Assembly: GCA_020137815.1 (NCBI GenBank)
Contig: CM035358.1
Coordinates: 2,728,001-2,792,000 of the forward strand
Source of the DNA: Hormiphora californensis
Lineage: Eukaryota > Animalia > Ctenophora
DNA: 64,000 nucleotides
Direction of reading: 5' to 3'
Numbering within the stretch: position 1 is the first letter of the stretch; each line of letters starts with the position of its first letter. Below are positions 1 to 63,726 of this stretch, piece by piece. The position numbers and the translations under genes were made by a program. A model generated the notes under the pieces. That model did not search any database. It saw only the letters and a list, made by a program, of their open reading frames with translations, and was not told the DNA's origin.

Positions 1-2848
1 TCAGTTTAGAATTTGCATTAATGCTCGACAGCTTCGGGTACTGGAGCTTATAAGGGTCTGGAACAGCAGTCGATCTGGTACGGCAAGTAACATCAACGAT
101 ATCTGTAGGTATTTGCTCAATGAGGTAATCTGGAGCACTTCCATGTACAATCTTATAGGCCATGAGACAGGCCTTAAAGATCACCCGTTGCTCCACAGGG
201 AGAATGTGGGTTTCTCTCATGTAAGGGAGGTAGTCCTCTTGATGACCGTGGAGTCCATAGATAAACCTTATACAAGAGTTGAGCACTTTCTGTAACCGAG
301 AGATGAGCTTCATTGGCAAACCTCCATAGAGGACATTGCAGTAATCCAAGCGGGATATAACCAGCTGCTTAACAAGAAGGATTCTGGTAGAGAAGTCCAG
401 GCATCGGTGGACTTGCCATAAATTCCTCAGTAGCATTCCACAGTTTCTTCTGACACTGTTCACCTGACGTTCCAATGTCAGGTTCTCATCCATATAAATA
501 CCCAGAGTCTTTCCGGTAGTACCTGTGAAGTCAACTGGGTAGATATCTGCATCCCCAAACCTAATACAGGGCTCAAAAGCCAGCTTGTCAATGGCACTGC
601 TCTTCCCTAGAAGAAGGAGCTCCGTCTTCGACTCATTACACTTCAGCCAATGCTGAACCATCCAAGTCTTGATCTGATCAAGACACTCTTCAACTTTCCT
701 CCTCGTGATACTCCATCCACTTTCATCAAGAGGGACTAGACTCACATAGATTTGAGAGTCATCCGCATAGAGTTTGATTTTGAGTCCATACTTGTGTACC
801 AGATCCTGTAGTTCCTCAACATATAAAAGAAACAAAACCGGTCCGAGAAGGGACCCTTGTGGCACTCCACAAATCAAGTAGATAATCTTCGATAGTTCTC
901 CTCTAACGTTGACTCTGAAGTTCCTCAGTCCAAGATAGCTAGTAAACCACTTGAGTGCTGTTCCTCTTATTCCAAATCTCCTTCTCAAAACATCCACAAG
1001 TTTAGCATGGTCAACCGTGTCGAACGCTGCACTCATGTCCAAAAGGAGTAGAGCTACAACATTTCCCTTATCCATCTCCTGCAGTAGATCATCAAACATC
1101 CCCATGAGTAGAGTTTCACAGGAATGACCAACTCTATATCCTGACTGGTGAGAGTTGAGTAGGTCATTTTCATTCAGAGCCTGATTCAGTTGATCAAGGA
1201 CAACTTTCTCTAGAACCTTAGAGACAAAGGGAAGGTTAGACACAGGACGGTAGTTGGAAAGGCTATCACGATCACCATAGGGGTTCTTGATGGTTGGAAA
1301 AACCAGTGCTTGCTGGAACAATTCTGGAACAATACCTTGACGGATAGAAGAATTGATAATCTTAGTAAAGAGTGGAGCAAAAACTTCCACGCACTCTTTG
1401 ATCAACCATGTCGGTATAAGATCAAGATCACACGTTTTATCCGACATATTCTTAATGATCCTCTTCATCTCATCCTCAGAGACTTCCCTGAATTCCTCAA
1501 GAATACAATCCTTATCCAGGTCCACAAGAGAGTCCACATCCTCCGCAGGAAAGTCCATATCTGCCTTCACTGAGTTCCTGATTTTTTCCACTTTTCCAGT
1601 AAAGAAGTCCGCAAAATCCTCGGCCAGTTTACGATCACAATCCACATCCGGCAACAACACCTCACTGTTTCCAAGTAGTCGATTTAGTTTCCTCTGTAAC
1701 GCTTTGGAATCCCCTTTTGATTCTTCAAGATCTTCTTTCAGATAGTTAGTCCTCGCTTCCTTATCAACTCTACTAAACATCTTCTTCATCACGTTATACT
1801 GCATCTTCGTAACAGGCGTCTTCTTGCTTCTCCAAGTCCTCTCCGCAGTCCGACGTCTTCTTAGCGCATCCCTGACATCATCATTGTCTCTCCACGGGCG
1901 AACCTTTTTCACTTTCTTTCTTCTCTTCAAAGGGACAAAACTATCTACTAACTCCTTGAGTTCTCTTTCATAGATCTCAAACAAATCATCTGGGGACTCC
2001 AAATCAAACCGTCCTTCAAGGCCACTTCCTCTGAGGGCCTTCATGAACAATACCGGGTCCACTGATTTAAAGTCTCTGTAGGTGTTAACTCGATCCCGTT
2101 GCTGTAGGTTTCCAACCTTAGTCTCCAGTACGACTTCACTCAGAACAAGAAAATGGTCAGACTCTGTTCCCTCAGGATGTATTTCCACAGATTTAACTTT
2201 CTCCTCTACCTCCTTTGGACATATAACCAGGTCAAGAGTGCCTCCACGGTTGTGTGTTGGTTGCCTGGGGACAAGCTGAGAAAACTCATGTGAGTCCAGG
2301 AGTTCAGCAAGCTTCTTAGTGTAGAAGTTGTCCCTATCCTGCCATTGAAAATTAAAGTCTCCCATAATAAGGGGAAGACCAGTCTTCAATACTAGCTCTG
2401 AGAGATAGTCTGTGAATTCCTCTAGGAACTTCGCTTCAGTGAACCTAGCTTTACCGGTATAGGGCGGTCTGTAAACATTACATATCCGAGTAAGGTCCGC
2501 TCCATTACCAATTAAAATCTCCTGAATCTGGAACGATTTAAATTTCCTCACTGGTGGTAGTTTCATCTTAACTCCATCCCTGTAGAGTATCCCAATACCG
2601 CCTCCTGCCCTCTCCGCCCTAGGGGATGAGAAAATATTCCAGCCATAGTCTCTTATCTCCTGAAGTTTCGCGGTATCACTAGTCTTCAAGTAGGTTTCCT
2701 GAATCAGACAGATATCACATTCCATGTCCTCAAGATGCGCTATAACCCCAGACGTTTTATTCATTATCGAGTGCACATTTAGTGTGCCAACACGCCACGT
2801 CTCTTTACCTTCAGTTCCTCCCACGCCCTCGTCAGATAAGCGTTTTTT
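1..2848 (-). CDS. LINE ORF2: AP endonuclease plus reverse transcriptase (runs off the window start)
   Basis: Manual translation: WRVGTLNVHSIMNK...ICLIQETYLK (APE start, ~2800-2690), LDMSAAFDTVDH (~1010-1045), GVPQGSLLGP (~840-870), KLYADDSQ (~750-775). I did not check every codon for stops; its absence from the ORF track fits an ORF open to the edge. Confidence 0.9.
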
Positions 2849-4086
2849 CTCTCCTTACTGACACCACTTGTGTTCTCCATCAGTCTTCCTCGAGCATTAA
2901 CATAATGCGGACACAAGTTACTTGATGCTGGATGGGATTTCGCATACTTCTTGTCATCCTTACTACCTCCAACATCACAGTTTACACACTTCATCCGATT
3001 GAGTTCATTCCCACTCTTCGCCCTACATTGTCTGGTGTCATGATCTCCTGCACAGAAGGCACAGGTGGCGCTTTTATCTTTACTCGGACAATAGACAGAT
3101 CCAGCTACGTGTCCATAACGCTGGCAGTGGAAACACTGAGTAACGTAGAATCTGTCCTTCACAATGTGCTGTCTTAACTTCAGGAAAATCCTATCTCGAT
3201 TATCAGCAATGGCTTCTCGTATATCAGGTGTAACCTTGAGCACCGCATACCTCCCAGCAGTGTTAACATGAATGACACTGACAGCCTGCCCAGACTCATA
3301 TAGCCTCTTCACCACTTCATTCTTATCACTCAAGATGGCGTCCAATAGCACCTCTTTGTTCAACAGGTCATGGTCCAGATCGGAAATCAATACCCGAGGA
3401 TCCATCTTCTTCTGCTTCTCAACAAACGGAGTAACATTCAGAAACGGGGACAGCACTTTCTCTGCTTCTTTGAGGTCGTCATCAGTTGCAAAAAACAACT
3501 GAGTGCCCTTCCTGTTCACCGAAGTGTCCAAGACGGGGATGTTCTTCAGAGCTTTCACGACCTTTGGTTTCACTACCATTTTCCACTTCTCCTCACACAT
3601 TGGTGTCACTCCTTCCTCATTGCTGTCTTTGATGCTCATATACCGTTTCACAGGGGTAGCTGGTGCAGCTTTCTTCTCCTGCTGACCAGAACTACACGTT
3701 ACTTCACTCTCCTCTCGGTTCTTCTTCAATATCTCATTGACTACTGGGGCCATGAGTCCAGGTAGGCTATCCATCAACTCTTGCTTCAGTTTTGAGAAAC
3801 CATCCTTCAGATCATCACTTGAAATCGAGACTCCAGAATCTGACGATGGTGTAGGACTCCGGGAACTGTCCGGAAGCATCCGGTAACACATAATCAACAT
3901 CTGCCAAAGATCCTTCTTCGTAGGTCCACCTGGAGCATCCATAGGCTCACCCGGGGTACCAGCATCCTCCTCCAATTTCTTCCACACTGTACTGCCTTTA
4001 CATTTGTCAGAGAAGCTCGTGACAAGGAGCTTACCTTCGAAGTCCTTCTTCGTTCCACTTTCATACTGGGGTGCCAATCCCGACAT
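2779..4086 (-). CDS. LINE ORF1, gag-like nucleic-acid-binding protein with C-terminal zinc knuckles
   Basis: ORF 2779-4164 has CFHCQRYGHVAGSVYC, CAFCAGDHDTRQC and CVNC...H...C knuckles. The first ATG after the SL is at 4086 and is in frame (4164 is a TTG). Confidence 0.9.
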   Translation of the reverse strand: MSGLAPQYESGTKKDFEGKLLVTSFSDKCKGSTVWKKLEEDAGTPGEPMDAPGGPTKKDLWQMLIMCYRMLPDSSRSPTPSSDSGVSISSDDLKDGFSKLKQELMDSLPGLMAPVVNEILKKNREESEVTCSSGQQEKKAAPATPVKRYMSIKDSNEEGVTPMCEEKWKMVVKPKVVKALKNIPVLDTSVNRKGTQLFFATDDDLKEAEKVLSPFLNVTPFVEKQKKMDPRVLISDLDHDLLNKEVLLDAILSDKNEVVKRLYESGQAVSVIHVNTAGRYAVLKVTPDIREAIADNRDRIFLKLRQHIVKDRFYVTQCFHCQRYGHVAGSVYCPSKDKSATCAFCAGDHDTRQCRAKSGNELNRMKCVNCDVGGSKDDKKYAKSHPASSNLCPHYVNARGRLMENTSGVSKERKNAYLTRAWEELKVKRRGVLAH

Positions 4087-4272
4087 TCTATCCTGTAACA
4101 GTGGCGCGAGGATCCGATCCACCAAGATTTGGCTTCCTGGATTTGGCTCAACGAGGTCTCCCAAGATCTGCCCAACTTAGAAAGAGACAGGAACACCAGG
4201 CTTGTCTTGTCTTGAAAAGAGGGGGATTGAGCAGAAGTCTTAGAAGAGTAACGAGGAGCAGTTGAACGGAAC

Positions 4273-4314
4273 CTCAAATTAATTTGTTTAAAGTAGTGTT
4301 GAAAAGTTTGAAAC
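4273..4314 (-). other. Retroposed spliced-leader (SL) exon copy at the LINE 5' end
   Basis: Minus strand reads GTTTCAAACTTTTCAACACTACTTTAAACAAATTAATTTGAG, identical to 63104-63145 (+); it matches my recollection of the ctenophore SL. Confidence 0.85.
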
Positions 4315-6405: not shown

Positions 6406-7860
6406 CAGAATGTAAAGGAAGAGAATTAGAAAAGTTTGTCTGGATTTCAGAGTGTGACCGATTTCGGACATTATGTCTGATCACGCCTGCTGACGAAGCG
6501 CCATGCACTTTACCACACTCAGCACCAATTACATAATCGGTTTAACACATGGCTGGGGGCTGATTACCTCCAGTAAGACACGTGATACGTGATACCTGAG
6601 TGCAAAAATGCTCCCAATTAGGCCGACTTACACCACTTTGCCGCGTTCCTGCGAAGGAACTAAAAAAGATATCGCCAAACCAAGCAGCCAAAAGTTTGTA
6701 AATTGTCTAATGAACATATTGTGAAAGTTTGAGCTCTCTACCTCATCAGGTTGCAGAGATCTGAGCGCTCAAAGTTAGAGGAGGTTTTTGGGCTACAGGT
6801 TCATTCATGAACGACCGATTTTGCTGAAATTCGAGTACAATAAATGGCAGGTAGCCATCTACCTTGTCCTAAAATTTCAGAGCAAAATATTCACAACTTT
6901 TGACGCTATGTCGATTTGAACAGTCTCAGTCATTTAAAAACACACAGTAGTTATGTCTTAACAAATAGCTCTTTTCTTGACATTTCTTCACTGCGAATAA
7001 GATATCATCGCATCTAACAATAGTTCCGAATATAGCAAATACCCTCTCTTTTCCAAAGATGAAAACCCGACTATCCGAGTATCGAATTTGGCGGAGGAGA
7101 CATCAGATAAGGATCTACAGGAGCTGTTCAAGCCATTTGGAACTCTCTCCAGGATCTACCTGGCAAAGGACAAGAATACTGGAATTTCCAAGGTTCGTAC
7201 AGTAGCAAATTACAGGGTGATGGACAATCAGGCAAAATGGCTTCGGTCCCGTCCCCTGCCTCCTCTCTCATCCCGCTAGAACTTAGCGGCGGCAGCGGAC
7301 AGGTGTTTCGCAGTGCGCGCACGAACAAACTTATAACGGAAAGGACACAATTTCAGCAGTTGGTCCGCGCGTCATCCAATGTTTAAACTTCACATCCAAG
7401 ACCAGGGGTGTTGAAATCTCCGACACACACTGTCAGAGATTTCACAATGTGATGAATGAAACACGCTCTTGTACAATAACTTTAGACGATGAAGCATTAT
7501 CCAACATTTTAAGTTAGCTAGTAAAATGTGAAAACTGCCTGAACAATAAACAATAAGTTGCCGGGGGTTACTTTTTCCCGCTCCAATTCACCACTACTTC
7601 CGGTGCTAACACCTCCCCCTCTCTCCTAACAGGGTTTCGCCTATATAACATACAACCGACGAGAGTCAGCGGAGAAAGCCTTGAAGCAACTGCACAGATA
7701 CAGATATGGACATCTTATCCTGCAAGTGGAATGGGCAAAGTAAGTTTAGAAGGGGGTCCCCAGGGAATATTTGGTAACCTAGCAGTACTAGAAATCCGTC
7801 TAAATATTCTCATATTTTCTAACCCACATTCTCCCTTTTTTCAGGCCCTCCGGATCGTGA
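5561..7860 (+). CDS. EIF3G: Translation initiation factor 3 subunit G, last four exons (5561-5665, 7059-7192, 7633-7739, 7845-7860); 5' exons not found in the window
   Basis: GT-AG exons join in phase to give GTYVPPAIRKG...DENPTIRVSNLAEETSDKDLQELFKPFGTLSRIYLAKDKNTGISKGFAYITY...YGHLILQVEWAKPSGS*, the eIF3g C-terminal RRM. Confidence 0.95.
5700..6947. mobile_element. Non-autonomous fold-back DNA transposon (MITE), ~470-bp TIRs, TA target duplication (Tc1/mariner-type), in an eIF3g intron
   Basis: TA|CTGTGTGTTTTTAAATGACTGAG ... CTCAGTCATTTAAAAACACACAG|TA; the arms are near-perfect reverse complements. Confidence 0.9.
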
Positions 7861-10862: not shown

Positions 10863-11900
10863 CTAGGACGAGTACTCAAAACTAAATGTTATATTCCTCT
10901 TATACTCCTGGTCAGGTTGAAGAATACAATCCGGGAAGCCCTTCACATTAACCGCATTTGGGAAGTTCTGAGCCTCCAGAGCGACCCCTGAATGTTTATC
11001 ATACCTCTTCCCACCCTTACCCTCGGCTGTTCCATCTAGATAATTACCGGTGTACACATGAATACCAGGCTGATTTGTGTGAATCTTTACCCTCCTCGTA
11101 TCACTGGCTATCTCCGCTGCTGGAACCACCCAGCCATCCTTAGCTAGCAATGCAAACGTGTGATCGAATCCACCGCTGACAGAACTTATCTTGTCGCAGA
11201 TGGGCGTGTCCCTGAACTCAAATGCCGTCCCTTTGCAGTCGATAATCTCACCCGTTGGGAGAATTGTGTCAGAGTTCATTTCAATATACCCTGCGTAATC
11301 ATAAACAGTTAATTTATCTTTAAGGGCACTCTCCTCACCACCTGACATATTGAAATACGGATGGAAGGTAAGGTTAATGGGGGTAACCTGATCACATGTT
11401 GCAGTCATATCAATGCTCAGGAAGGTACCCTTCACCCTCCCTCCTCTTGTCTTACTCCTAAGCGATATGTCAACTGTGACAGTCAGACTTCCCGGATACC
11501 CATCCGTGCCATCCGGCTGGAAGTGAGACAACCTTAGCACATTGTCCAGAACCTCAACATCCCAGACGACCTTGGACAAACCAATAAACCCGCCATGCAG
11601 GTGTGTGTCATTATTATTGTTCAAACTCAGCTGATAATCATTGTCACCGATTGAGAACTGTCCACCTCCGATACGACCCGCAACTCGACCAACTATACAG
11701 CCGGAGTAGAAATCATGATCCTCATACCCACTGACATCATCAAAACCCAGCAATACATCAACACCATCCGGGAAGATAAATGAGACAAGTGAGGCACCGT
11801 AGTCTGTTACAGATATCTCAATTCCAGATTCACTCTTGCACGTGTACAAATTACATGCTTTGCCACTTTTTAGAGTGCCAAATGGCTTAACTTCCCACAT
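10863..11900 (-). CDS. GALM: Aldose 1-epimerase (galactose mutarotase), intronless
   Basis: 345-aa ORF with GRVAGRI, HLHGG, NLTFHPYFN, GFDHTF, QPGIHVYTGN and LEAQNFPNAVN motifs. Confidence 0.93.
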   Translation of the reverse strand: MWEVKPFGTLKSGKACNLYTCKSESGIEISVTDYGASLVSFIFPDGVDVLLGFDDVSGYEDHDFYSGCIVGRVAGRIGGGQFSIGDNDYQLSLNNNNDTHLHGGFIGLSKVVWDVEVLDNVLRLSHFQPDGTDGYPGSLTVTVDISLRSKTRGGRVKGTFLSIDMTATCDQVTPINLTFHPYFNMSGGEESALKDKLTVYDYAGYIEMNSDTILPTGEIIDCKGTAFEFRDTPICDKISSVSGGFDHTFALLAKDGWVVPAAEIASDTRRVKIHTNQPGIHVYTGNYLDGTAEGKGGKRYDKHSGVALEAQNFPNAVNVKGFPDCILQPDQEYKRNITFSFEYSS

Positions 11901-12230
11901 GCTAAAAACAGCTGGATATGTCTATTAATATGTGTTTTAGAAAAAAATTCAATTTATAAGTTCTTCTGTAAACTGTAAAAAGTTCTGGTATCATGCCTTT
12001 ATCTTCTCAGGAAAAACAAAACCGAGCAAAATCGAGTGTGGCAACTTTTTTACTAAAAAAAGAAAGATTTTTAGATGGCATGCACTGTAAAAATCGCAGT
12101 AATGCCGTATAGTGTCTTGTAAAAGTTTGAGTTACAAAAAAGACTACAGACTGTGAATTTATCAGTATGTAATAAAAATACTCTGAGATTTTGAGTTTGA
12201 TTTGTTCTTATTTAGATATGCTACGCTTTG

Positions 12231-13679
12231 TCAGTCTAAATCGGAATAAAAAGGTTCAAACATCGGATCATAGTAGACTAGTCCTCTAAGTGACTCCGGC
12301 TCCCTATAAAGTTTTGAATAAGCTGGGTTAAGATAGCTTTCCGGAAATCGATAACGTTTTATATGACAATGGCCGGAAGTCGGTTTCAATTGGGTACATG
12401 TTAAGTTGTAACTGTCGTCGTCAACATCTTCTCGATCGATAACAATTTTCAAACACCTGCATTTTTCATAACACATTGGCCAATTATAGTCATCACCAGG
12501 CTTGCCATTATTCATGGGAGCAAGGTTCATTGGATCGCTAATTTCTGAAAAAGGAACCCGCCAGCCTCCTTCGAGTAACATGCTATTTCTAAGGTAAAAA
12601 TCACATGCAAACCACTCTGGAATTGACACGTGTATAGATTTCCATCCCCGCTCTCTCTTTACTACCTCAATCCGCTCTTCTGCTTCATACACATCGGCAA
12701 CAAAAGGGATATGAGTACATATTGTCCCCAAAAAGTTCCACAAGTTATAGAACTTATAACTATTGTCAATAAGAAATTGAAATCGTTCCTCATCCGTATT
12801 GCCAGGAATGTTAGTATAACAAAACCAAGTCGCTACCATACCATCATCCGTAGCGGCAAGACATGATTTTCTAAAGTTTAACAACCACTGAAAATCAGCC
12901 GAAGTTAGCAGCATATGGCTATCAAGGATAATACCAAAGTGCAGTGCGAACTGTGTCGTATCCGATTTAGCAAGGCTATGAAGACAGGACCTTTCCAGCA
13001 GAAACTTGAGGTTATCATTCAAACAAAACATTCCATGCTCTATATCTGAGCCGAGTTTGGCAAATAGATGAGTCAGCAGAATACAGGTCTCTCTATCGCA
13101 CTCGGAACACACCAGTAGCAGTTTCAGTTCAATCTTGGAGAGACTCTGATACCGTTGGCAGAGTAGCTCGACTAAAGCATCTCTGGCATTCAGTTCATAC
13201 ACCCTCGTCACTATAGAGTTGAGGGGGTTTGTTTCTTCGAAGAGGTTTGTTGGGTAGTGATTGGTCCACATGAAGCATGCTTCCTTTAGTAGTGGACCCA
13301 CAGTATCAGCTGTAATTTCTTGCAAAGCAGCTACTTGTTCCCCGAACCACCAAAAACATCTCTTGCTCGCCCAATCAATTAACCAATCACCGCACAATTT
13401 GATAAGATCACGGAAATACTCAAGGGAAATCTCCAGCCTTCCAGATTTAACAGCCGCAACCAAAGATCGGACAGCCATGTCACTGTACTCTGAAAGGTCT
13501 AAATCAATGTCCCCCTCTCCATCTGCCTTTATTTTAGAGAAAAGTTTATGGCTATCATGCGCTAAAACAAACGTCCTGAGTTTAAGTGTATCTCCAGAGT
13601 TTAGGAAGAGATTAAAAAATCTAACATTCTTGAACTCCCATTCCAGTAAAAGGCGATGATGGGACGGAAGCTGAAACAA
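12231..13679 (-). CDS. Intronless lineage-specific protein with a divergent N-terminal BTB/POZ-like domain; true start uncertain
   Basis: 482-aa ORF that begins at a TTG inside a splice acceptor (TTGTTTCAG). FNLFLNSGDTLKLRTFVLAHDS...DLDLSEYSDMAVRSLVAAVKSG fits the BTB pattern and resembles the BTB region of 31544-33316. Confidence 0.65.
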   Translation of the reverse strand: MFQLPSHHRLLLEWEFKNVRFFNLFLNSGDTLKLRTFVLAHDSHKLFSKIKADGEGDIDLDLSEYSDMAVRSLVAAVKSGRLEISLEYFRDLIKLCGDWLIDWASKRCFWWFGEQVAALQEITADTVGPLLKEACFMWTNHYPTNLFEETNPLNSIVTRVYELNARDALVELLCQRYQSLSKIELKLLLVCSECDRETCILLTHLFAKLGSDIEHGMFCLNDNLKFLLERSCLHSLAKSDTTQFALHFGIILDSHMLLTSADFQWLLNFRKSCLAATDDGMVATWFCYTNIPGNTDEERFQFLIDNSYKFYNLWNFLGTICTHIPFVADVYEAEERIEVVKRERGWKSIHVSIPEWFACDFYLRNSMLLEGGWRVPFSEISDPMNLAPMNNGKPGDDYNWPMCYEKCRCLKIVIDREDVDDDSYNLTCTQLKPTSGHCHIKRYRFPESYLNPAYSKLYREPESLRGLVYYDPMFEPFYSDLD

Positions 13680-14379
13680 TTGCCAATTTTAGTAGGCTTC
13701 GATTGTCGCTGTTAGTGCAGGGGTGACTGCGATACCAAAAATCAGTACTGAAAGGGTATTCCAAAAATGGCAGTAGTTTTTTAGACAATAAAATTAGGAG
13801 TAAAAATTTATCAAAGTCAAAAAAAATCTTTGACAAACCTGGTTGTAGTATTGGGGGGCGTGTGAGATGATAGGTACGTTGTTTAGAATTGGGTGCAGCG
13901 GGTTAAATTTGTTTGACTGAAAAAGATACTCATTAAAAGCAAATACCCCATACTGCGGGTTATAATTGAGGGGGGGGGGTATAAAATGTTGTTCCTATTA
14001 GCACCATCAAGCGTCGCACAAACACATGCTATATATTACCTGGTTCATGGTAGAACATGAAATCGGAACGATGGATGCTATCGGCAGATTGAATTGTTAA
14101 CAATATGAACATGATATTATAACAAAGTGGGGCACCGCTAAGATTTTGGATCTGGGCTGTACGCTCCAGTTACAGATTTGAAACTAGCACCAGGATCGGT
14201 AACCAGCACCAGGCGCTAGCTGGGAGAATCCCTATGCGCGCGACATCTTCGATTGACTAGCAGGGATTTCGATGTGAATTGCATCTAAAGTAGCGCGCGC
14301 GACAGTGTCAGCAGTGTCAGCAGGGCCCTGCACCATTGTAACTAGCTCCGGTAGCAAAATCTCTAACTGGACCCTTAAA

Positions 14380-22828: not shown

Positions 22829-24183
22829 GGGTACGCTAACCAAAAATTTTTTTCGAGTGCAGGGAAATCTCTCACCGTAGGGTTGTAGGCCATGCCAAGG
22901 AGACCTCAAATATGCAATTTGAGCTCTCAAGTCGAATTCATATTTTTGCTACAGCTGCTTGAAAAATGAACTGAAAATAAGTTTTTGGCATCTTAAAAAT
23001 ACATTTGTAAAGATAGGATCATAAAAATTTGTGGATTTGAAGAGGACAAAGAGGTGAGTAGCCACAAAAAATTTTTTTGAAATCCGAGCTGATTTCCGGT
23101 CCTGAGATGGATTTCTTTTTTTTGACTTTAACGCCATATTTGGCCAAGTTCCGAAAATATGTGAAAGCTGTAAATTGGTCAAAAGTTGCGTCTAACGATT
23201 CTCTATATGGCCATAAATTTTGGGCGTGTCCTTATTTGAGATAAGCTGTACAGAGTTTTTTTTGTGAAAGCCGTCATTTCAGAAATAAATAAATTCCCTG
23301 TATCTCAAAAACGGTTGATCGTAGAGACCTGAGACTATGCTTAAACGATTCAGAAGGTCCGATTTTGGGGGGGTCTTCTGAGAGACATTTTGCTCCTACT
23401 TCAACCGTTTTTGCTGTAATTGCGAAAAACAAAAACCCATCTTCGCCATCGTGGATTTTTTGTGTTTTTGTTTTTGATGATTATAGGGACCCATATGGAC
23501 CAAATAGTGAAGGAATTAGCTTGTTAAACATTTTTCCATAGTTTCGGTCCTTTCTTAGCTAAAATTCCCTAATTACAGGATATTGGAGTTTAGCTTTTGC
23601 CCTTTTCATAGAATTTGTTTTTCGCAATTACAGCAAAAACGGTTGAAGTAGGAGCAAAATGTCTCTCAGAAGACCCCCCCAAAATCGGGCCTTCTGAATC
23701 GTTTAAGCATAGTCTCAGGTCTCTACGATCAACCGTTTTTGAGATACAGGGAATTTATTTATTTCTGAAATGACGGCTTTCACAAAAAAAACTCTGTACA
23801 GCTTATCTCAAATAAGGACACGCCCAAAATTTATGGCCATATAGAGAATCGTTAGACGCAACTTTTGACCAATTTACAGCTTTCACATATTTTCGGAACT
23901 TGGCCAAATATGGCGTTAAAGTCAAAAAAAAGAAATCCATCTCAGGACCGGAAATCAGCTCGGATTTCAAAAAAATTTTTTGTGGCTACTCACCTCTTTG
24001 TCCTCTTTAAATCCACAAATTTTTATGATCCTATCTTTACAAATGTATTTTTAAGATGCCAAAAACTTATTTTCAGTTCATTTTTCAAGCAGCTGAGAAA
24101 AAATGAAAGATGGAGAAAAGAAATTGAGGGGCCCCGGAGGTAAACCCCCCGGAGGGGGACAAAAAAAAAAAGGTGGGGACCCT
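22829..24183. mobile_element. Fold-back element with ~600-bp TIRs; left end TTAA|GGG (Kolobok-like termini); right end garbled
   Basis: About 22950-23434 is the reverse complement of 23613-24095, which explains the identical spurious ORFs on both strands. Beyond 24095 the match decays into noisy sequence. Confidence 0.75.
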
Positions 24184-25630
24184 GTGAAAAAAAGGTTTTA
24201 ACCACCAAAAAGGCCCAAAGAAAGAAACAAAAGGATCCCCGAAAAAGAAAGAAAAGAAAAAGAGGGGAAAAAAAGGAAAAAGAAGAGAAGGGGAGAGAAA
24301 GAAAAGAGGGGGGGAAAAAAGGGGGGAAAAAAAGAAAGAACAAAAAAAAAGCAAAAAAAAAAAGGGGAGGAGAGAAAGAGGAGGGGAGAGAGAAAACAAA
24401 GGGGAAAGGAGAGGGGAGAGGGGAGAGAAAGAGGGAGGGGGAAAGGGGAGGGGGGAGAAGGGGAAAGGGAGGGGAAAAAGGGAGCAAAAGAAAGAAGAAA
24501 AGGAAAGGAGGGGGGAGGGAAGGGGAGGGGGGGAAAGGAGAGAAGGGGGGGAGAGGAAAAAGGAAAGGAAGGGGGAAGGGGGGCCCGGGGGGGGGGGAGG
24601 GAGGGGGAGGGCCCCCTAAAACAAAACCCCAAAAAAAAAGGAGCAAACGGGGCCCCCCCCCCCTTTTTTTTTCTCCAAAACCGATTTTTTCCCCCCCCAT
24701 ATCCTTTCCTTTCCGGAAAAGGCCCGAAAAAAAACAATGGAAGTTTGGCAAAAGAGAAACAATGAAAAATGAGGGAAAAAAAAAAAAAAAAAAGTTTTAT
24801 TAATTGGGAAAGAAAAAAATGAGAGGGGAAAAGGAGAGAAAACGATTTTTCCGCAAAAGGCAGTTTTTTTTCTCCATATTTCAAAAAAAATACCAATCAA
24901 GGAATCTGAGCTGGGGATTTTTTTGGTTCTTTTTTTTTTGGGGGGTTGGAGGGATTCTGGTTTGAGGGGGGGGGAAAAAAAAAAAAAAAAAAAAAACAAG
25001 GATTTTAACGCCCCCTCTCAAATCCGGTGTTTTTTGTTTTTTTTTTTTTGTTTTTGTGTCTTTTTTTTTTTCATTCTTTACCCCCCCCCCCTTTTTCCCT
25101 TTCACACTCAGTATCACTTCATTTTTTTTCCCCCCCATGTCGAGTACATTTGGTTAAATCTTATCTTTTTTGTACCACCCTTTTTTTATTGGGTTTTTTA
25201 AAAAAACGCTTTGCTTTTAGATTCCCTCTCCTTCTCCTCTCCTCTCTTCTTCTTTTTCCTCTTCCTTCTTCCTCCTCTCTCCCCCTACACAAAGTTTGTT
25301 TTAGTGAGCCAAACAAAAGTGCATTTTGGTCACTTTTACTTTCATTTCCCTATGATCAGCCAATTTGGGGCCAGCATTCAAGTCACGTGAGCATCCCCAC
25401 CCAATTCGTTCATTTTCACTTGCCTCTCTCAAAAACCCTGTGTTTTTGTTTTTGTTTTTTTGCTTTCGTTCTTCATTTTGGTTTCCCCACCCCCCCCCCC
25501 CCCCTTTTCCCCCCCCTCGTACATTCTTATTTTTTGACCCCCCTGTCGAGCACAGGGAAAAACTTTTTCGTACAAAAAATTTTAGATTTGGGGGGGAAAA
25601 AGATTTGCTTAAAAAGGAAAATTTTGGGGG
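24096..25630. other. Low-quality, homopolymer-inflated sequence (probable long-read consensus artefact)
   Basis: Runs of A/G/C/T with recognisable garbled copies of the TIR end and of the ~420-bp unit at 25640-26010 (CACTCAGTATCACTTC, TATGATCAGCCAATT, AAGTCACGTGAGCA). Confidence 0.85.
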
Positions 25631-25648
25631 CCCCTCTTCCCTCTTTTC

Positions 25649-25710
<62 letters not shown>

Positions 25711-26252
25711 GTTTTGTCAGTGCAGCCAATCAAATTGCTGCATTATGGTCACTTTCACTTTCACTTTCACTATGATCAGCCAATTGGGTGCCAGCATTCT
25801 AAGTCACGTGAGCACCTCCCGATCCCAATCTCGTTCATTTATCACTTGCCCTCTCTCAAATCCGTGTGTTTTGTGTTTATGTTTTCTTGCTTTCGTGTCT
25901 TCATTTTTGTTTCATCTCTTCACCCCCCCCCCCTTTTTCCCTTCTCACACTCAGTATCACTTCTTATCTTTTTGTACCCCCCACTGTCGAGCTACATTTT
26001 GGTCTAATATTACCCACCGCCCCACAACCCCACCCGCCCTCCCCCACCCACCTCTCCCAATATAGCGGGCATTCATATACTGCATACTACAGAGACAATC
26101 CTTGTGTTTTGGTGCACTAAGTCGCTTATCGCGTGTAACAATTAACAAATGTTCTTAGCTTTCCCGCCCGACTTGTCTTCTAGAACATTCTAGTGGTGCT
26201 ACATTCTGTCCAACCCCTTTTTGTGTTTGATCGTTCTCGTTTATCTTTTATA

Positions 26253-29449: not shown

Positions 29450-31128
29450 GCCCAATTTGCGAGAACTCAACAGCAATTTGTGGAGCACTGGTACTGCGTC
29501 AAAGAGAGTTTGAAGAACAGCAGCGGATCGTTAAATGCAGGTGGATGAAACTATATTCGTGCTCGATTCTAAGTATTATAGTGAGCCCTTTTTTATGAGA
29601 GCTTTCAGGTTGACAGCTGTGCGCTCCCTTTCTTTTGAAGTAGGGAGATAAGAAACATTAAGTAGAAAAAGTAGAACAGCTCTTATTATAATGGGTTTTT
29701 ATCTTTACTGTGCCGAGTTTTTAGGATGCTGCAAGAGAAGGAACGAGGTTGAGATTTAAAACAGCTGGAATCTCTGCATTCCGTCACTCAGCTGCATTGA
29801 GAGTTAGAAAGATTCGGACCTTATAAAAACGAGAGAGAGGTTGAATATATGGGCACTGTATTACAACAAGCTGTAACACCTTGCCTCTCAATTCTCCCCC
29901 TTGTCCCACGTACAACCTTCTGATACATTTTGTACTGAAAAGAGTTTGTATAGAGAAAGATCGACTGTGTTTATGTTCTAAATTGTCTCACAAATGATAG
30001 CTCTCTCCGTGAGCGATGATAGTACAGTCCCGTAGATCAATGACAATTGACAAGTTCCGTGCAAGCTACCAAAGTTGATAACGTCACTCCTAGCTCTCAT
30101 CACCCTCTCTCTCCTCCCCAGATGTATACGACAGCAAAGCGGCCAGCCACATCGCCGAGATGATTTATATGATTGAAAATGACAAGGCACCACCAGAATC
30201 CGATTATGTAAGTGTTCTGTGGGTGGTTCGGAATAAGAGAGATAAGATTTCATATGTCATGATTCGTGTGGCTCACATTGGTAACGAAGTTACCCCTCCC
30301 TTGCCGGCGCGGCGTGCGAAGCACGCCAAACGAAGGCCGCGAAGCGGCCTGAGTGTGAGGTGTCTTCGATAGATTTGACTCGTGCAAACTACTAGCTTAC
30401 TACAGAACAGAGAACAGAATTTTGTGTAATTTAACTGATTAAGTCATGACAAGGTACACCAAGGACTGTCCGCGGTGTCATCTGACACACAACTCCTGAA
30501 AATATTGTGTACAGCGTGGTGGTGGAACGCGCGTCCGCCGAACTGCTTTCGAACAGTGATTTGTGCGCGCTTTGGGGGAACATCTCCCCCATACCCCGCC
30601 ATCGCACGCGTCATCAATCGATCTCCCCTCGATCTCACATGATTCTCATCCGATGCTTTCCTAACCCTTTCCAATTATTTCCAGGGTCCGTGCGTAGAGT
30701 TTATCCTTCAGCACGATGTGCTAGGAACACTACAGAAACACGCTCAAAATGATGTACCAGTCGGAATCAGGAAGATTGTCCTGACCTTTCTTTCTCAGCT
30801 AATCCAGAAACTTCCCCGCTCTGCCCTCCCTCATCTTCACATACATCGTCCACTTCAGGTATTATGATAACTAGTGTATGTGCTAACGAAGATTAATAAG
30901 TTAAGACATCTCTAATAACACAAATTGTTTCTCTCAGGATATGCTGTGCATATGCGGGAGCGGGAAATATCCTATTGACGAAATTAACTTCATAACTTCT
31001 ATTCTTGGGAAGTTCCACGAGGATCCATCTCTGGTTAACTTGTTCATGAACGAAACACTCGGACGTAACGGCTCAAAGGTATTTATACTCGTGAATTGTG
31101 ATTTGCCCATAGCTTCCGTGGCGCAATA

Positions 31129-31161
<33 letters not shown>

Positions 31162-31280
31162 CTGGTTCAAGTCCAGCCGGTAGCGAAGACTTTTTGCACT
31201 TTTTTTAGTCCAACAAAAGCAGATGAAAGGGAACACATTTTCCCACTTTCTTTTCCAGACAGAGCTTCCGTGGCGCAATA

Positions 31281-31313
<33 letters not shown>

Positions 31314-34300
31314 CTGGTTCAAGTCCAGCCGGTAGCGAATACTTTTTGCACTTTTTTAGTCAAATAAAACACCTTTTTCTCACAACAGAATATAATGTAC
31401 ACGCCAAAGTTTTCATACTACATACGAGAATCATAAACACACAGCATGTTTTCACACATTTTTTCTGAGAAACAATTATTTTTTCTGAGAAACAATTATT
31501 TTGTATAAATCCCTGTCATGACTGACCATTATGATTATGGCAATTATGTCGATGTTTTACCAAAATTAAACTTTATTTGGCGGGAGAAAAATACCCTCTC
31601 CTTCGTAGAAAACGGTCTCTGTGACTTCGTGCATGGCCAGCAGGAATCCTTTATCCTGTACCAATGGTTCCTAGCCAGTGTTGCTAATGTGCCATCGATT
31701 GGCTTCAGCTCTTCTTTATTTTTGGGTAGCTCTCCAGTGAAATTATATTTTGAACACATGTCGTACTTCAGTGATAGGGCATCATGAAGAACAATAAGTA
31801 ATTCATTGTCATAGAGAGCAATGTTGAAGTTTTCTATTACGTACTGAAGTAAAGGAATGTCGTTTTTCGAAGCCATAAATAGAAGTGAACATAGTTGCTG
31901 ATGAAATTCAGAAAGAAGGTCAAACTGAACAACCACAACCAGTAGCAAGTCCATTTCAGATCGTTTTGTAATGGTTGTTAGCAATCTGGAAAGGTGAAAC
32001 TGGAAATATTTTTTTCTCTCAGGGACGAAGGGCTGCGACATAAGGTGATCCAAAAACGTGGTGTTTTCATATTTTACACATGCGTCCAATGCCAAAGTTG
32101 CAATATCCCAGAACTGTCCAATTTCTAATGCCTCCATCTTGGATTTGGAACGGGCAGTAGTGGCCGAACCCCATTCATTGTAGAGTATAAAATACAATTC
32201 AGAAAGTTCCCATTCAACTTTAAAAACTGCGAACATTTTGAATAATTCCTTCTTCACACTAAAAGGATAGGGACCTCTATACCAAGGGTAGTTACTCAAT
32301 ACCTTCTTAATGCTTCCCGAATAACAGGCATTGACAAATACCCGTACCGATTTTGGGTCAAAGTCAGTCACATCATGGTCTAGTTCTCCCTCCTTCTCGA
32401 TAAGATTCTTCAGGACCGGAGAGCTTTTGGTCAGAATGTAGGAGTTCAGAGGAATGGTTTTGCCATCTTTTAGAGTAAAACTGATGTTATGATGTACTGT
32501 TTCTTCTCGACAGTGTTCACCAAAATCAGGCGTATCATGTTGAGAGTGAGCAAGTGGTAAAGAAGCTGCCCTGTCTATCATGAAAGTAACCACAGATTTT
32601 TTATCAGGAATTTCAGAGTTATCAAAATGTATATATCTTCCAAGAGGTTTTTCTTTCCCCGGTTTGGATCGACTTCCAATAGTTATAGTCAGTAGAAGTT
32701 CTTTAACACTGATGGTACCGCTTGTGTTATCTACGACAACTGTAAATTTTACTCCATATTTGGATTTCCGTCCCTCAGCAATCCATGTTATTCCATCCTC
32801 TGTATGGCTTGTAGAGACAGTATCATCTGTCATAAAGTCCTCTAACTTTCTGTGGAAGACCACTACGTTGTTCCGAACTGGTGGAGCCAAAGGTAGTCCA
32901 ATGTAGCTGTTGTTAATCTTAATATGAACTTCAATGTCCAAATATTCAATTCCATCCAGATCCAATCTTACTGGATTGATGAATTTTTCCAACCTCTGTG
33001 GCGAGCTTTTCGAAAATATGTGATGGAACAGCTCTGTTTGAGTTTTTAGACCGTAGAGAATCGGATCTTCATCCCCGGTATCCATGTATCGCATTTGTTT
33101 GAGTACAAAATAACTTGCATCACAGTACCATTCTTTTGCCGAGTTAATTGGTTGTATAGAAAACTGAACATCAAAGTCTTTGCCATTATTCTGCATTTTA
33201 AGCTGTAATCTGAATTCCTTGTAGAACACCATGGCACTTGAATAACAGATATCCGTCTCAGAGTACTCGGACCGCATCCGATTCTCCCAAAAACTCCCCA
33301 TTTTGACTATATCCATTCCACTCTGCAGGTAGTAAATAATTAGTTATGAAGATTGTGTATAACAGGCCAACGAAGCCGATACTAAAACAGCTGCGGGCTT
33401 TAGATGGCAGAAAAAGCATATTCAACAGAAGACAAGCATCACAAGCGTTCTTATCTCACTCATATTCTGTCACGGGGTGGGGTTAGACTAGCAAAAAAAG
33501 CGGCGTTAAATTTCACTGGACCAAAGATAAACACAAGAATTCTAAAATCTAACCTTTTTTCAGAGTTACGAGTTGAGACTCCTGGACGCCCTGATATCCC
33601 TGTCCCATTTGAAGGATGACAGAGTGGTGAAGAAGAGTTGTGAGAGTTTGTTATTGTGTGTAGCGGCTGATAGTGAATATGTGATTGACAACATTCTCTC
33701 CTATACCATTCTCGTCCAGGATTTGGTGAGTGAAAATGACAGACTGACACAGTATTACACGCGGTACAGTCGAACCAAACCAAACTACACAACTGTTTCT
33801 TCGCTTTAGCTTCGCACACAGCATCAAAGCTAAAGGTAGCTACGCGACAAGACAGTCTTTTGTGAGACTGATCATATGCAGTACAAATTCAATACAAAAT
33901 TGTCTAACACTGCACCTTCCCTAGTAAAATCCAGCTCCCCTGTCCAATTCCCCTACTTCTAACTCCCCCTCCCCTGCTTCAGGTATCCCGGTTATGTCAG
34001 AGGTACGGCTGTCTCCGTGCTGAGCCCTCTGTTCTACTTTACACTAACGTATCATGGACCTCCCAGTTGGAACACACCATCGCAGAACACACGGACTCAT
34101 CTGCAATCCGCCTTTTATTATGGGTTAGTGTTGGTGACATACATACACATGTGCGAGATCGATATTACACTAAGTGAATGGGTGGCAATGGCACTAAGGG
34201 TTAGTGTTGGATAATGTGGGAAGGGGAGCGTGAGTGTGATAGGAGTTGGTGGTTTGAATTTTAATTAGGAGGTGTTTAGGGATTTAGTGGTTTGGAAATT

Positions 34301-38359: not shown

Positions 38360-40640
38360 AAATCGCGACAGTGCGCTCAGATGGGTCGCGGCGCCAGACA
38401 GTTCGGGGTGGTAGCCGTGCTACCTCTGTGCGTGCTATCTGACGCCAACCCGACAGATCAGGTCGGCGCCGCCAGACAGTGTGCATGCTGACAAACTCGA
38501 TGGTACAACGTTGTACCATCGAGTTAGTCCTCCTCTGCAAGATGAAGATTTCGGCAGAGTTCCAATCCTACTGTCAGCTTTCTGGCATGGCGCCGTAGAC
38601 CCCATCTGTGATCTGAGCGCACCGTCGTTGAGAATTAAATCGGACAGGCTGTCAGAGTATTGGCCTGATCCTATTCTCATTATTCACAACGGCGGTCAGA
38701 GCATTGGCATGACAGAGTTCCTGACTGCTGCAGGTCAGATTCTGACTCAGAAGGAAGAAAAGGGATTGTCAGGGCGAGGTTTTCACGGCTAGTGGTATCG
38801 TATGGATAGATGTGCATGGCACGGAGAGTTGAAGTTAGAGGAGTGGTAGAAGGTGTGGCGGAAGTGGAGAAATGAGTGAACATCACTGATGTCATCAGTG
38901 AGAAAGCAGGGTGACGTTGGTGGTGGCCGTGCCAAGTTATTTGATGGGTATTGGTCAATCTATGCAATGCTTGCCCGGAGACGCCGACCCAATCTGAGGG
39001 CGTTGAGAATTACAGGGTGTCCCACTGTCTTTGCATCACCTGTGATTTTGGGTCATGACCGGGCTCCATTAAACTAACCAAAACTCATCGAAAAATTGGT
39101 CAAAATGGTTCTAACAAAAAGCAGTGTTCTAGAGAATTGTCTGGCGAACATTTTGGTGGCAAGATTGACGTTCCAAATCTTACCAATCGTCAGATATATC
39201 GTCGTAAAGTCAAAAGTACGTGTTCATGAAATCCGACCGGGGTTCACGTTTTGAAAAATTCACAAATGCAAAGTTGCTCGGATCACATTGCATCCCTCAT
39301 AAGAGTTGTAGGAAATTGTCTGGCGGTCATTTTGGTACCCGGGTTTTTGTCCTAGCTCAATGTTTAGAGTGTCTTATGACTGTCTAAAGACGAAATTCAA
39401 CCAGCATTTTTGAGGGGATCACGTGTCATCAACAAATGGGTAAAATGATATGAAATTTACAAGAGATTCATTGGAATCGTCTAAGGTTCATTTTGATACC
39501 ATGATTTTTTCCATAGCTCTATGTTTTAGTTGCGTTATGACTGTAGGAACATGAAAATTGTTCTATGCTGAGTCTTAGTTGGTATCGGCTCACAACCCCT
39601 AATTAGGTGGCTCGGTGTCGTGTGTAATCCCATGATAATCAGCACATATCGTCTCAATTTCATCTAGACACTTGACAGGGTTGTTATGACGATTTGGCAA
39701 GGCCCCTGTTAATGTGTAGGATACGCAAGTGGTCTATCTCAACCCTTTCATGCACTAACATGTTATTCAAGCAGCAATGAGCTTCATAACAGGGCAAAAT
39801 GCAATGCGATACCTGAGACCACTTTTGGAAAAATTCCAGTTCTGACAGTCATAAGACACTCTAAACATTGAGCTAGGACAAAAACCCGGGTACCAAAATG
39901 ACCGCCAGACAATTTCCTACAACTCTTATGAGGGATGCAATGTGATCCGAGCAACTTTGCATTGGTGAATTTTTCAAAACGTGAACCCCGGTCGGATTTC
40001 ATGAACACGTACTTTTGACTTTACGACGATATATCTGACGATTGGTAAGATTTGGAACGTCAATCTTGCCACCAAAATGTTCGCCAGACAATTCTCTAGA
40101 ACACTGCTTTTTGTTAGAACCATTTTGACCAATTTTTCGATGAGTTTTGGTTAGTTTAATGGAGCCCGGTCATGACCCAAAATCACAGGTGATGCAAAGA
40201 CAGTGGGACACCCTGTACAACAGCCAACGGCGTCTGGCGCGAGTACAGTGCGGAGAGTTAAGTGCCAGACACCGTTTTGATTCTCAAATCGGGTCGGCGC
40301 CGCCAGACAGTTCAACCTTGTGGTGTTGAGGTGTTCTGCGAAAACATTGGCACCTCTAGTAGGTTGTGGGTGACCCACTGGGTGGGATACTGTCAGGCCA
40401 ATGCTCTGACAGGTGGGATACTGGAATAGTCCCTGACACTGGGTCATCCCTCATCATGATCAGGCCAACGCTCTGACAGCTCAAGACCGTGGTGCATGAG
40501 GCTTATGCACCACGGTCTTGAGCTGTCAGAGCGATGGCCTGATCCTATTCTCATTTCTTTCACAAGAACCGCAGTCAGAGCATTGGCCTGACAGGTCTTG
40601 AGTCAATTCCTTGACCCCTGAGCCTTCTGGCGGCATCAGA
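38360..40640. repeat. Nest of short dispersed palindromic repeats (GGCGCCGCCAGACAG and GTCAGGCCAATGCTCTGAC families), including a hairpin at ~40458-40544
   Basis: The motifs recur in both orientations at ~37105, 38390, 38465, 38695, 40295, 40392, 40460 and 40575. Confidence 0.7.
39013..40215. mobile_element. MITE, ~370-bp TIRs, TA TSD, CAGGGTGT termini (Tc1/mariner-type)
   Basis: TA|CAGGGTGTCCCACTGTCTTTGC ... GCAAAGACAGTGGGACACCCTG|TA. Confidence 0.92.
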
Positions 40641-50400: not shown

Positions 50401-51023
50401 ATTAGAGGGACCAAAAAAAGAAAGGGAAGAGAAAAAATTTTGGTAAAAAAAGGGATTATCAACTTCCAACCTGGGGGCCCCCCGGGGTTTTTTTCCCCCC
50501 TTTTCTTTTTCCTGGGGGATCCCTTTTATTTTTTTAAATTTTTTTGGGTTTCCAATATCATAGGGTTTGGGGGTTTTTAAAAATGCTATTTTACCCCCGG
50601 GGGTTTAACCTTCTCCCCCTGTTTTCCTACCCCTTTCTCAACTTTTTCTCCCTTCGTTTTTTTCCTTCTTTCTCCCCCCCCAAAAAATTTTTTTCCCAAA
50701 TCGCGCCGGACAACTCCAAAAAATTAGAAAAGGGAAAAGGTGGGGGGTTTTTGGAAAATAAAAAGGAAAAATTTTTTTGGGGTCCTCCCTGGGTGGGCCC
50801 TTCCCCCACGGGGGAAAAACTGGAAGGTTTTTTTTTTAAAAGGAATTTTTTAAGAACCGTAGGGGGGGGTGCGCCAAACCTTTTTCCCTTACACCCCGGA
50901 CAAAAATTTTCCCCCCATGTTTTAGAAGGGGGGGGTTTGGGAGAAAAGGGGGAAAAAAAGGGGAAATTTTGGGGGGGGAAAGAAAAAAATGAGAGGGGGG
51001 AAAGAAGGAGGAGAGAGAGAGAG

Positions 51024-51058
<35 letters not shown>

Positions 51059-51285
51059 GGTATGTTAAAGAAGGTTTTTAGAAGGAACACTTGTGAATTG
51101 AATGGAAAAGAAACACTAAAAAGTAGATCAAGGGAGAGAAAGAGAGTCTCTGATTGGGCCTCTGTGTCCTTTATTTGGGTGTGAAAATAGCTGTCCGCCT
51201 GCCTCTCTCGAATATTGGGGAATTGATAATTCTATTTTCACGAGCACAATAGATCGATAAAGCAGGTGGTGTAATTTAGAAAAAG

Positions 51286-60448: not shown

Positions 60449-63726
<3,278 letters not shown>

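Follow-up and report, generated by a model that had tools for sequence, protein, structure and literature searches.

A conserved A_AAA_AAC heptamer at the ORF1/ORF2 junction of a ctenophore LINE family and its likely use in programmed -1 ribosomal frameshifting

The element and its ORF1/ORF2 junction

A stretch of 64,000 nucleotides (nt) from the ctenophore Hormiphora californensis (contig CM035358.1, positions 2,728,001 to 2,792,000; the whole stretch is referred to as the window and numbered from its first letter) contains one copy of a long interspersed nuclear element (LINE) on its minus strand. The two open reading frames (ORFs) of this element overlap, with ORF2 in the -1 frame relative to ORF1, and the ORF2 frame opens six bases before a canonical slippery heptamer, A_AAA_AAC. 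The results presented below suggest that the ORF2 product is likely to be translated as a fusion with ORF1 through programmed -1 ribosomal frameshifting at this conserved heptamer. The features of the element are as follows, APE denoting the apurinic/apyrimidinic endonuclease.

4273..4314 (-): 5' head of the LINE, a 42-nt exact match to the 3' end of the published ctenophore spliced leader
4087..4272 (-): 5' untranslated region, the interval between the leader and the ORF1 ATG
2779..4086 (-): ORF1, gag-like, 435 amino acids, with its ATG at 4086 and its TAA at 2781-2779
~3135-2911 (-): three Cys/His knuckle-like motifs of ORF1
2855..2857 (-): TAA closing the ORF2 frame, two codons 5' of the heptamer
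2842..2848 (-): slippery heptamer A_AAA_AAC on an ORF1 Lys-Asn, the predicted -1 shift site
2817..2838 (-): segment +4 to +25 past the heptamer, a candidate long-range stimulator that shows partial complementarity, in relatives, to the 3' arm of the element's terminal hairpin
2779..2854 (-): ORF1/ORF2 overlap; frame 0 encodes the C-terminal tail of ORF1
2773..2787 (-): weak hairpin GCACA-CTAAA-TGTGC of 5-6 bp, with the ORF1 stop inside its loop
2777..2779 (-): endonuclease Asn codon (of 'GTLN'), aligned with residue 14 (N14) of the L1 endonuclease
2762..2764 (-): first ATG in the ORF2 frame
2..2848 (-): ORF2 (APE endonuclease and reverse transcriptase), stop-free and continuing beyond the window

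A preliminary description of this DNA had placed ORF2 in the -1 frame, opening after a TAA near 2855, with a correctly phased A AAA AAC at 2848-2842 and an overlap of about 70 nt. The TAA was indeed found at 2857-2855 and the heptamer in the register AGA AAA AAC, while the overlap measured 76 nt including the stop. It had also stated that the first endonuclease motif precedes the first in-frame ATG and that initiation there would drop the conserved Asn; this agrees with an Asn codon at 2779-2777 and an ATG at 2764-2762, five codons later. The Asn at this position of the L1 endonuclease is functionally important. From 2854 the ORF2 frame has no stop for 951 codons, up to the window edge, and the overlap read in this frame encodes a G/E/K/T-rich stretch followed by the first endonuclease strand.

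Pfam matches above the cut-off in ORF2 were PF03372/PF14529 (endonuclease) and PF00078 (RVT_1), with the endonuclease preceding the reverse transcriptase, and the N-terminal region matched structures of L1 endonucleases. The Pfam search gave no match for ORF1 and detected no RRM; a weak zf-CCHC look-alike scored 0.89, and the three Cys/His motifs are invariant. Protease and integrase domains were not among the Pfam matches of the element. The element is an intact APE-type LINE, and its motifs presumably resemble those of CR1/L2. The types of LINE ORF1, including type I of the Jockey and CR1-L2 group with an RRM followed by C-terminal CCHC knuckles, are described in PMC4120745.

Conservation of the heptamer and of the ORF2 frame

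Relatives were collected by scanning metagenome contigs with two peptide patterns, both located upstream of the heptamer, and 89 candidate stretches yielded 20 loci falling into about 12 lineages when grouped by eye. Scans of viral contigs and prokaryote genomes gave no relatives. With one of the loci, L001, the blastn similarity of the window runs from 4321 to the window edge. Conservation of the heptamer across the family, which the preliminary description had proposed as a check, was borne out: a phased A_AAA_AAY with ORF2 in the -1 frame was found at the homologous place in 19 of the 20 loci (16 AAC, 3 AAT) over these lineages, and the -1 frame holds in 19/19 intact loci. The remaining locus, L020, is a decayed copy. 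It was left out of later counts, where n = 20 is made up of 19 loci and the window. A single fused ORF, which had been named as an outcome that would speak against frameshifting, was seen neither in the 20 loci nor in the copies from public runs.

The conservation extends to positions that the protein does not constrain. ORF1 identity across the loci is 26-86%, and fourfold third positions, computed on ORF1, are near random between the groups. Both free positions of the heptamer, A before the Lys codon and AAA over AAG, are fixed despite these near-saturated synonymous sites. At five other conserved Lys columns of ORF1, AAA occurs in 9/13, 5/17, 3/16, 3/17 and 2/19 rows, and A_AAA in 4, 1, 1, 0 and 0; other K-N pairs are encoded by A_AAA_AAY in 0/40 cases in ORF1 and 3/49 in ORF2. 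All six A are retained in each of 12 lineage representatives, the preceding base being C in 8, A in 3 and G in 1 and the seventh base C in 10 and T in 2. All 12 also have TA at +4/+5 past the heptamer, including L019, where the TA belongs to the stop. Elsewhere in the element canonical phased heptamers are depleted, with 7 against 19.2 expected in ORF1 and 14 against 34.4 in ORF2 (0/200 shuffles as low). A_AAA_AAY alone was found elsewhere 0 times in ORF1 against 4.3 expected (3/200 shuffles) and 3 times in ORF2 against 5.2 (44/200). The heptamer and the ORF1 stop are separated by exactly 60 nt in 10 sequences, by 48 nt in 9 and by 3 nt in L019, and the overlap of the two ORFs ranges from 16 to 130 nt.

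The window having one copy, copy statistics within the genome were taken from contigs of four public runs, of which 47, 32, 6 and 5 were placed (90 in total); rare variants are dropped by such contigs. No substitution or indel was listed at 2842-2848 in them. Sequencing error at the heptamer is excluded because no change is listed there while seven nearby positions (2836, 2839, 2841, 2850, 2857, 2858 and 2863) vary. Wider placement of the contigs showed one indel, at 3064.

An ORF2-frame stop lies at most 16 codons 5' of the heptamer in 18/20 sequences, and 1-3 codons 5' of it in 13/20. None of the 20 has such a stop within 16 codons on the 3' side; as background, 22.7% of 16-codon windows in the body of ORF1 are stop-free in the -1 frame. 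No conserved start codon for ORF2, cognate or near-cognate, was found in the 20 sequences. Between the heptamer and the Asn codon 15/20 encode no Met, and in 13/20 there is none in the whole open frame before Asn. The preliminary description had allowed for initiation at an in-frame GTG or ATG. The GTG at codon 9 of the window is not conserved, being replaced by ATG in L001-L003 and by neither codon in L004-L009 of the same subgroup, and four of the 20 sequences (L007, L008, L010 and L012) have no ATG, GTG, CTG, TTG or ACG before Asn. The ORF1 stop overlaps the Asn codon in 10/20, and therefore a forward restart would lose the Asn; the stop lies 14 nt before Asn in 9 and 35 nt before it in 1. 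The ATG that follows the ORF1 stop of the window belongs to the ORF1 frame and begins a reading frame of 4 codons, and in the loci no ORF2-frame AUG, such as that in the UAAUG of SART1, was found at the ORF1 stop.

More distant ORF1 proteins were compared as proteins only. There are 34 ORF1 homologs, and 3566 proteins matched a profile at E<=0.001, of which the best 150 were examined. A K-N pair stands 14-33 residues past the last knuckle in 106/150; in 29 it is missing, 14 lack the anchor motif and one is too short. Within an 11-residue window K-N occurs in 104/136, against a background of 10.2%, and at the aligned place it outnumbers K-K by 104 to 7. The residue before K-N has a codon that can end in A in 104/106, compared with 368/486 elsewhere. 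The ORF1 tail past K-N is 0-20 residues long in all but one protein and 0-4 in 43/106 (some of these are possibly contig ends), and K-N is the final residue pair in 10 proteins. Tails without K-N (n = 27) carry at the same offset D-F-L in four, D-P-F in two and Q-G-N in one (P0074, P0077, P0106, P0153, P0080, P0173 and P0092), and each of these tripeptides could encode another canonical heptamer.

Two of the relatives come from Pleurobrachia bachei and Mnemiopsis leidyi. In the Mnemiopsis gene models P0162 and P0183, ORF1 and ORF2 are joined directly past S-K-N and the first endonuclease motif is missing. They were rejected as genuine ORF1-ORF2 fusions on account of this skipped motif, and the joins are read as predicted introns bridging the frame change. 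The ORF1 of both models has an N-terminal Cys-rich stretch, which we take to be PHD-like, that is absent from the ORF1 of the window. Longer, fused forms of ORF1 were not found among 7997 candidates, in a weak search that missed these same two models.

Stimulatory structures and the weighing of explanations

The preliminary description had reported only weak hairpins downstream of the heptamer, and this assessment stands. The hairpin at 2787-2773 is real and starts 54 nt past the heptamer. In the 10 closest sequences 86.7% of its cells are paired, with one covarying pair; 8/500 shuffles reach its score and the consensus energy is -3.4 kcal/mol. It is weakly conserved and largely dictated by the GTLNV codons. 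A local hairpin or pseudoknot 5-9 nt 3' of the heptamer was not found in the 20 sequences, and such structures were rejected as stimulators by the folding and shuffle comparisons given below. A local stimulator is common yet not universal at sites of this kind, and its absence makes a classical retroviral-type signal less probable, not the operation of the site by -1 slippage.

A candidate for a long-range stimulator came from the 3' ends. The 3' end of the element in the window lies beyond the window, and pairing was examined in five relatives with complete 3' ends. In these the last 100 nt (L001:4815-4914, L003:4591-4690, L007:4984-5083, L015:5038-5137 and L018:4688-4787) form a long hairpin with an energy of -25 to -37 kcal/mol, after which comes a tandem simple-repeat tail of (TTA)n, (TTTCA)n or (GTTTC)n; the outer stem of the L001 hairpin looks compensated when judged by eye. 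The 3' arm of this terminal hairpin shows complementarity to the segment just 3' of the heptamer. The pairing falls within the best 1.3-7.1% of element windows in 4/5 loci and at 17% in L001. Of 819 aligned positions, ranks 1-6 belong to pairing windows whose start lies between -2 and +4, and the best rank reached in three settings was 1, 3 and 1. When normalised to shuffled targets the +4 pairing ranks 1 of 278 (z = -1.0, -1.8, -1.4, -3.2 and -5.7), the 278 positions being every third position plus 7 junction positions over the 5 loci, with settings chosen post hoc after the lead had appeared. Several results count against this pairing. Two loci carry the signal and the registers differ, cognate pairs did not score best consistently when partners were swapped, co-folding left the hairpin mostly closed, and in an unbiased scan for long-range duplexes the 15 sequences shared no best target. 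Pairing with the 3'-terminal hairpin may be regarded as a lead to a candidate long-range stimulator.

The phased heptamer, the -1 layout of the ORFs, the conservation of both and the missing start codon are observed directly, and the recoding signal in this APE-type LINE family is real and strongly conserved in heptamer and frame, while a local stimulator was not found. Tandem slippage by -1 is the simplest account of these observations, namely that the synonymous positions are fixed, the phase is constant, Asn follows Lys, the ORF2 frame opens at the site and a start codon is missing. In this model ORF1 would be translated to its stop by most ribosomes, and in a minority tRNA-Lys and tRNA-Asn would move back by one base and translation would continue into ORF2. 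The product would be a minor ORF1-ORF2 fusion, with ORF1 protein in excess over it, in which the 23 residues from the site to Asn would form a linker and the first endonuclease strand. The efficiency may be low if the heptamer acts alone, or it might be raised by pairing with the 3' end of the element. For mammalian ribosomes A_AAA_AAC is among the shiftiest heptamers (PMC5009743). The proposal in the preliminary description of an ORF1-ORF2 fusion by programmed frameshifting is supported as an interpretation, and the fusion protein itself we infer.

Several observations weigh against this reading. Past the heptamer the mean folding z is +0.45 over 60 nt and +0.47 over 100 nt, with 1/20 sequences below -2, and no H-type pseudoknot beats shuffles in a simple enumeration (best 3/40; window 32/40). 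Locus L020 has no heptamer; it has an AAAAAAG run, several indels and scrambled frames. An ATG is present between the heptamer and Asn in 5/20 sequences and further upstream in 2 more. Among the distant proteins there are the 29 of 150 without K-N, a heptamer-compatible tripeptide was found in 13/27 of the non-K-N tails against a background of 33%, which is not significant, and the K-N columns were part of the profile, which introduces a small bias. Finally, the invariant part of the heptamer is a run of at least six A, a run that would also fit slippage by a polymerase.

Such transcriptional slippage, in which RNA polymerase II would add an A within the A6 run of a small share of transcripts and fuse the ORFs in the mRNA, as at the potyvirus GAAAAAA, accords with the GAAAAAA of the window sequence, and it would need no RNA stimulator, none having been found locally. 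It should, however, be indifferent to codon phase and to the next base, yet the ratio of K-N to K-K noted above is strongly one-sided and a pyrimidine, C or T, always occupies the seventh position. The run is preceded by C in 8/12 representatives and by G in 1/12, and a self-copying element should leave genomic copies with an additional A; in contigs of the four runs, from which rare variants are dropped, no indel is listed there. RNA polymerase II rarely slips on A6, and we consider this explanation improbable. In potyviral slippage about 2% of transcripts are edited (PMC5009743). AUG-independent termination-reinitiation is slightly less probable still. It would operate as in mammalian L1, whose ORF2 is considered to start independently of AUG (PMC5009743), and the heptamer would be conserved for some other role, for example in pausing or in a protein motif. 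A stop 14 nt (9 loci) or 35 nt (one) before the Asn codon leaves room for it, in the 10 closest sequences the stop is enclosed by the weak hairpin, and at codon 9, a GTG in the window, three loci have ATG. This would nevertheless leave unexplained the fixed synonymous positions, the frame that is stop-free from the heptamer and the constant -1 phase, and it is difficult to apply to the 10/20 sequences in which the stop overlaps the Asn codon or to a family with no conserved start codon, cognate or near-cognate.

A separate message for ORF2, produced by spliced-leader trans-splicing or by a cis intron near the junction, is suggested by the element RNA, which appears to be trans-spliced at its 5' end, and by the two Mnemiopsis models that join the ORFs past S-K-N. 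Both models skip the first endonuclease motif, however, the published leader has no ATG, 13/20 junctions have none before Asn, and no GT or AG is invariant from 12 bases 5' to 24 bases 3' of the heptamer, so that this explanation appears very improbable. Least probable of all is a constraint on the protein, with Lys-Asn needed in the ORF1 protein and the DNA match incidental, or an artefact of homopolymer error or decay. K-N is conserved as residues and the window has low-complexity stretches elsewhere, yet the synonymous positions are fixed, the same layout recurs in 19 independently assembled contigs with no listed change in the four runs, stops close both frames on either side, and K-N can be the very last residue pair of the protein, as it is in 10 cases. 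This explanation is largely refuted.

Programmed -1 frameshifting at the heptamer can be extended to a more speculative model, which we put forward tentatively and regard as unlikely to hold in all its parts. In a widespread ctenophore LINE lineage the reverse transcriptase would be made solely as a frameshifted ORF1 fusion, with the 3'-terminal hairpin of the element acting as a switch for the slip. In this hairpin the 3' arm would have two alternative partners, a local one, giving the form gripped by the enzyme to begin copying, and the sequence immediately after the slippery site. Binding of the tail by the first enzyme molecule produced would then prevent more frameshifting on the same RNA. 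This RNA would be capped by the host spliced leader, and the leader copied into each full-length insertion.

Related systems, the spliced leader and implications

The idea of -1 frameshifting in LINEs has precedent because a review states, in a figure legend, that the Dictyostelium elements TRE5-A and TRE3-A need a -1 frameshift for ORF2 (PMC5911963). These resemble the ctenophore element in having two ORFs with APE and reverse transcriptase in ORF2. They differ in being amoebozoan and targeted to tRNA genes, and the parts of PMC5911963 covered here give no slippery site, conservation analysis or assay, whereas the ctenophore family has a canonical heptamer fixed at synonymous sites across a large animal family. 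Frameshifting has also been suggested from the consensus layout of Paramecium non-LTR (long terminal repeat) groups 1-2 (PMC5405496); that case concerns a +1 frame in a ciliate, and frameshifting versus reinitiation is left undecided in the text covered. Retroviral and coronaviral A_AAA_AAC sites share the X_XXY_YYZ heptamer and, as here, a gag-like Cys/His ORF1 before a polymerase ORF in the -1 frame. The difference is that the ctenophore element is a LINE without LTRs, and no hairpin or pseudoknot was found 5-9 nt downstream. The gag-pro junction of mouse mammary tumour virus uses A_AAA_AAC, and for the Arabidopsis ATLN elements a -1 overlap has reportedly been proposed.

In L1 and in Bombyx SART1 the LINE RNA is likewise bicistronic, with an APE and reverse transcriptase ORF2 needed in small amounts (PMC3894237, PMC10275272). 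The L1 ORFs are separated by a spacer, and in SART1, for which termination-reinitiation is described (PMC10275272), the stop and start are joined (UAAUG). In contrast, the ORFs of the ctenophore family overlap in the -1 frame with no conserved AUG and no ORF2-frame UAAUG. Barley yellow dwarf virus has a long-distance frameshift element (PMC5009743) formed by the kissing of two accessible loops; in the ctenophore LINE the putative partner is the arm of a strong hairpin that must open, and the support is statistical only. ORF2 initiation in LINEs is described as an open question in PMC3894237. The parts of PMC5009743 covered name no -1 site at a LINE ORF1/ORF2 junction, the main texts of PMC13343379 and PMC4120745 contain neither 'frameshift' nor 'overlap', PMC5006619 adds nothing on TRE frameshifting, and PMC7175516 and PMC7986045 add nothing in the parts covered. 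No report of a heptamer site in ctenophore LINEs was found in a literature search whose scope excluded most subscription papers, Repbase reports and supplements. A -1 frameshift route to ORF2 appears to be without prior test in animal LINEs.

The first 42 bases of the LINE (4314-4273) are the last 42 of the H. californensis spliced leader (PMC8527503), which in its published form has no ATG. The leader heads five of the 20 loci nearly in full (L001, L004, L005, L006 and L007), is partial in L008 and is diverged in L017 and L018. The ORF1s of the leader-headed loci are far apart and the DNA 5' of the leader is different each time. The leader was likely copied from trans-spliced RNA, and its final AG could serve as the next acceptor. 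In a ctenophore genome 718 leader loci have been reported (PMC8527503), and leader-headed copies could explain part of them. A second exact 42-nt copy of the leader lies at 63104-63145 (+), followed by unrelated DNA without a long ORF, and is possibly another retroposed leader-capped RNA.

Outside the LINE the window contains the following.

7001-7276 (+): RRM exon of a host gene, which we take to resemble eIF3g
10866-11921 (-): long host-gene ORF, aldose 1-epimerase
12234-13688 (-): host-gene ORF of 485 codons, no Pfam match
~24000-26000 and 49900-51100: stretches of low complexity and rich in homopolymers, apparently sequence of poor quality
31112-31185 and 31264-31337 (+): two tRNA genes of equal score, 152 nt apart, the sole Rfam matches
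31547-33343 (-): long host-gene ORF, BTB-domain protein
39393-39459: matches the 5' flank of L003 at 88% and is probably another repeat

L1 and SART1, the LINE cases that have been tested, use restart, and the ctenophore family offers a sharp and testable alternative with a predicted junction peptide. A site that is apparently poor in stimulators and still under selection is also useful to frameshift research. If programmed -1 frameshifting at the heptamer is true, gene models and consensus ORF2 starts of such elements would be wrong at the N-terminus. The enzyme would stay tethered to the RNA-binding ORF1 protein, which would bear on cis preference, and some animal LINEs would use the retroviral Gag-Pol solution.

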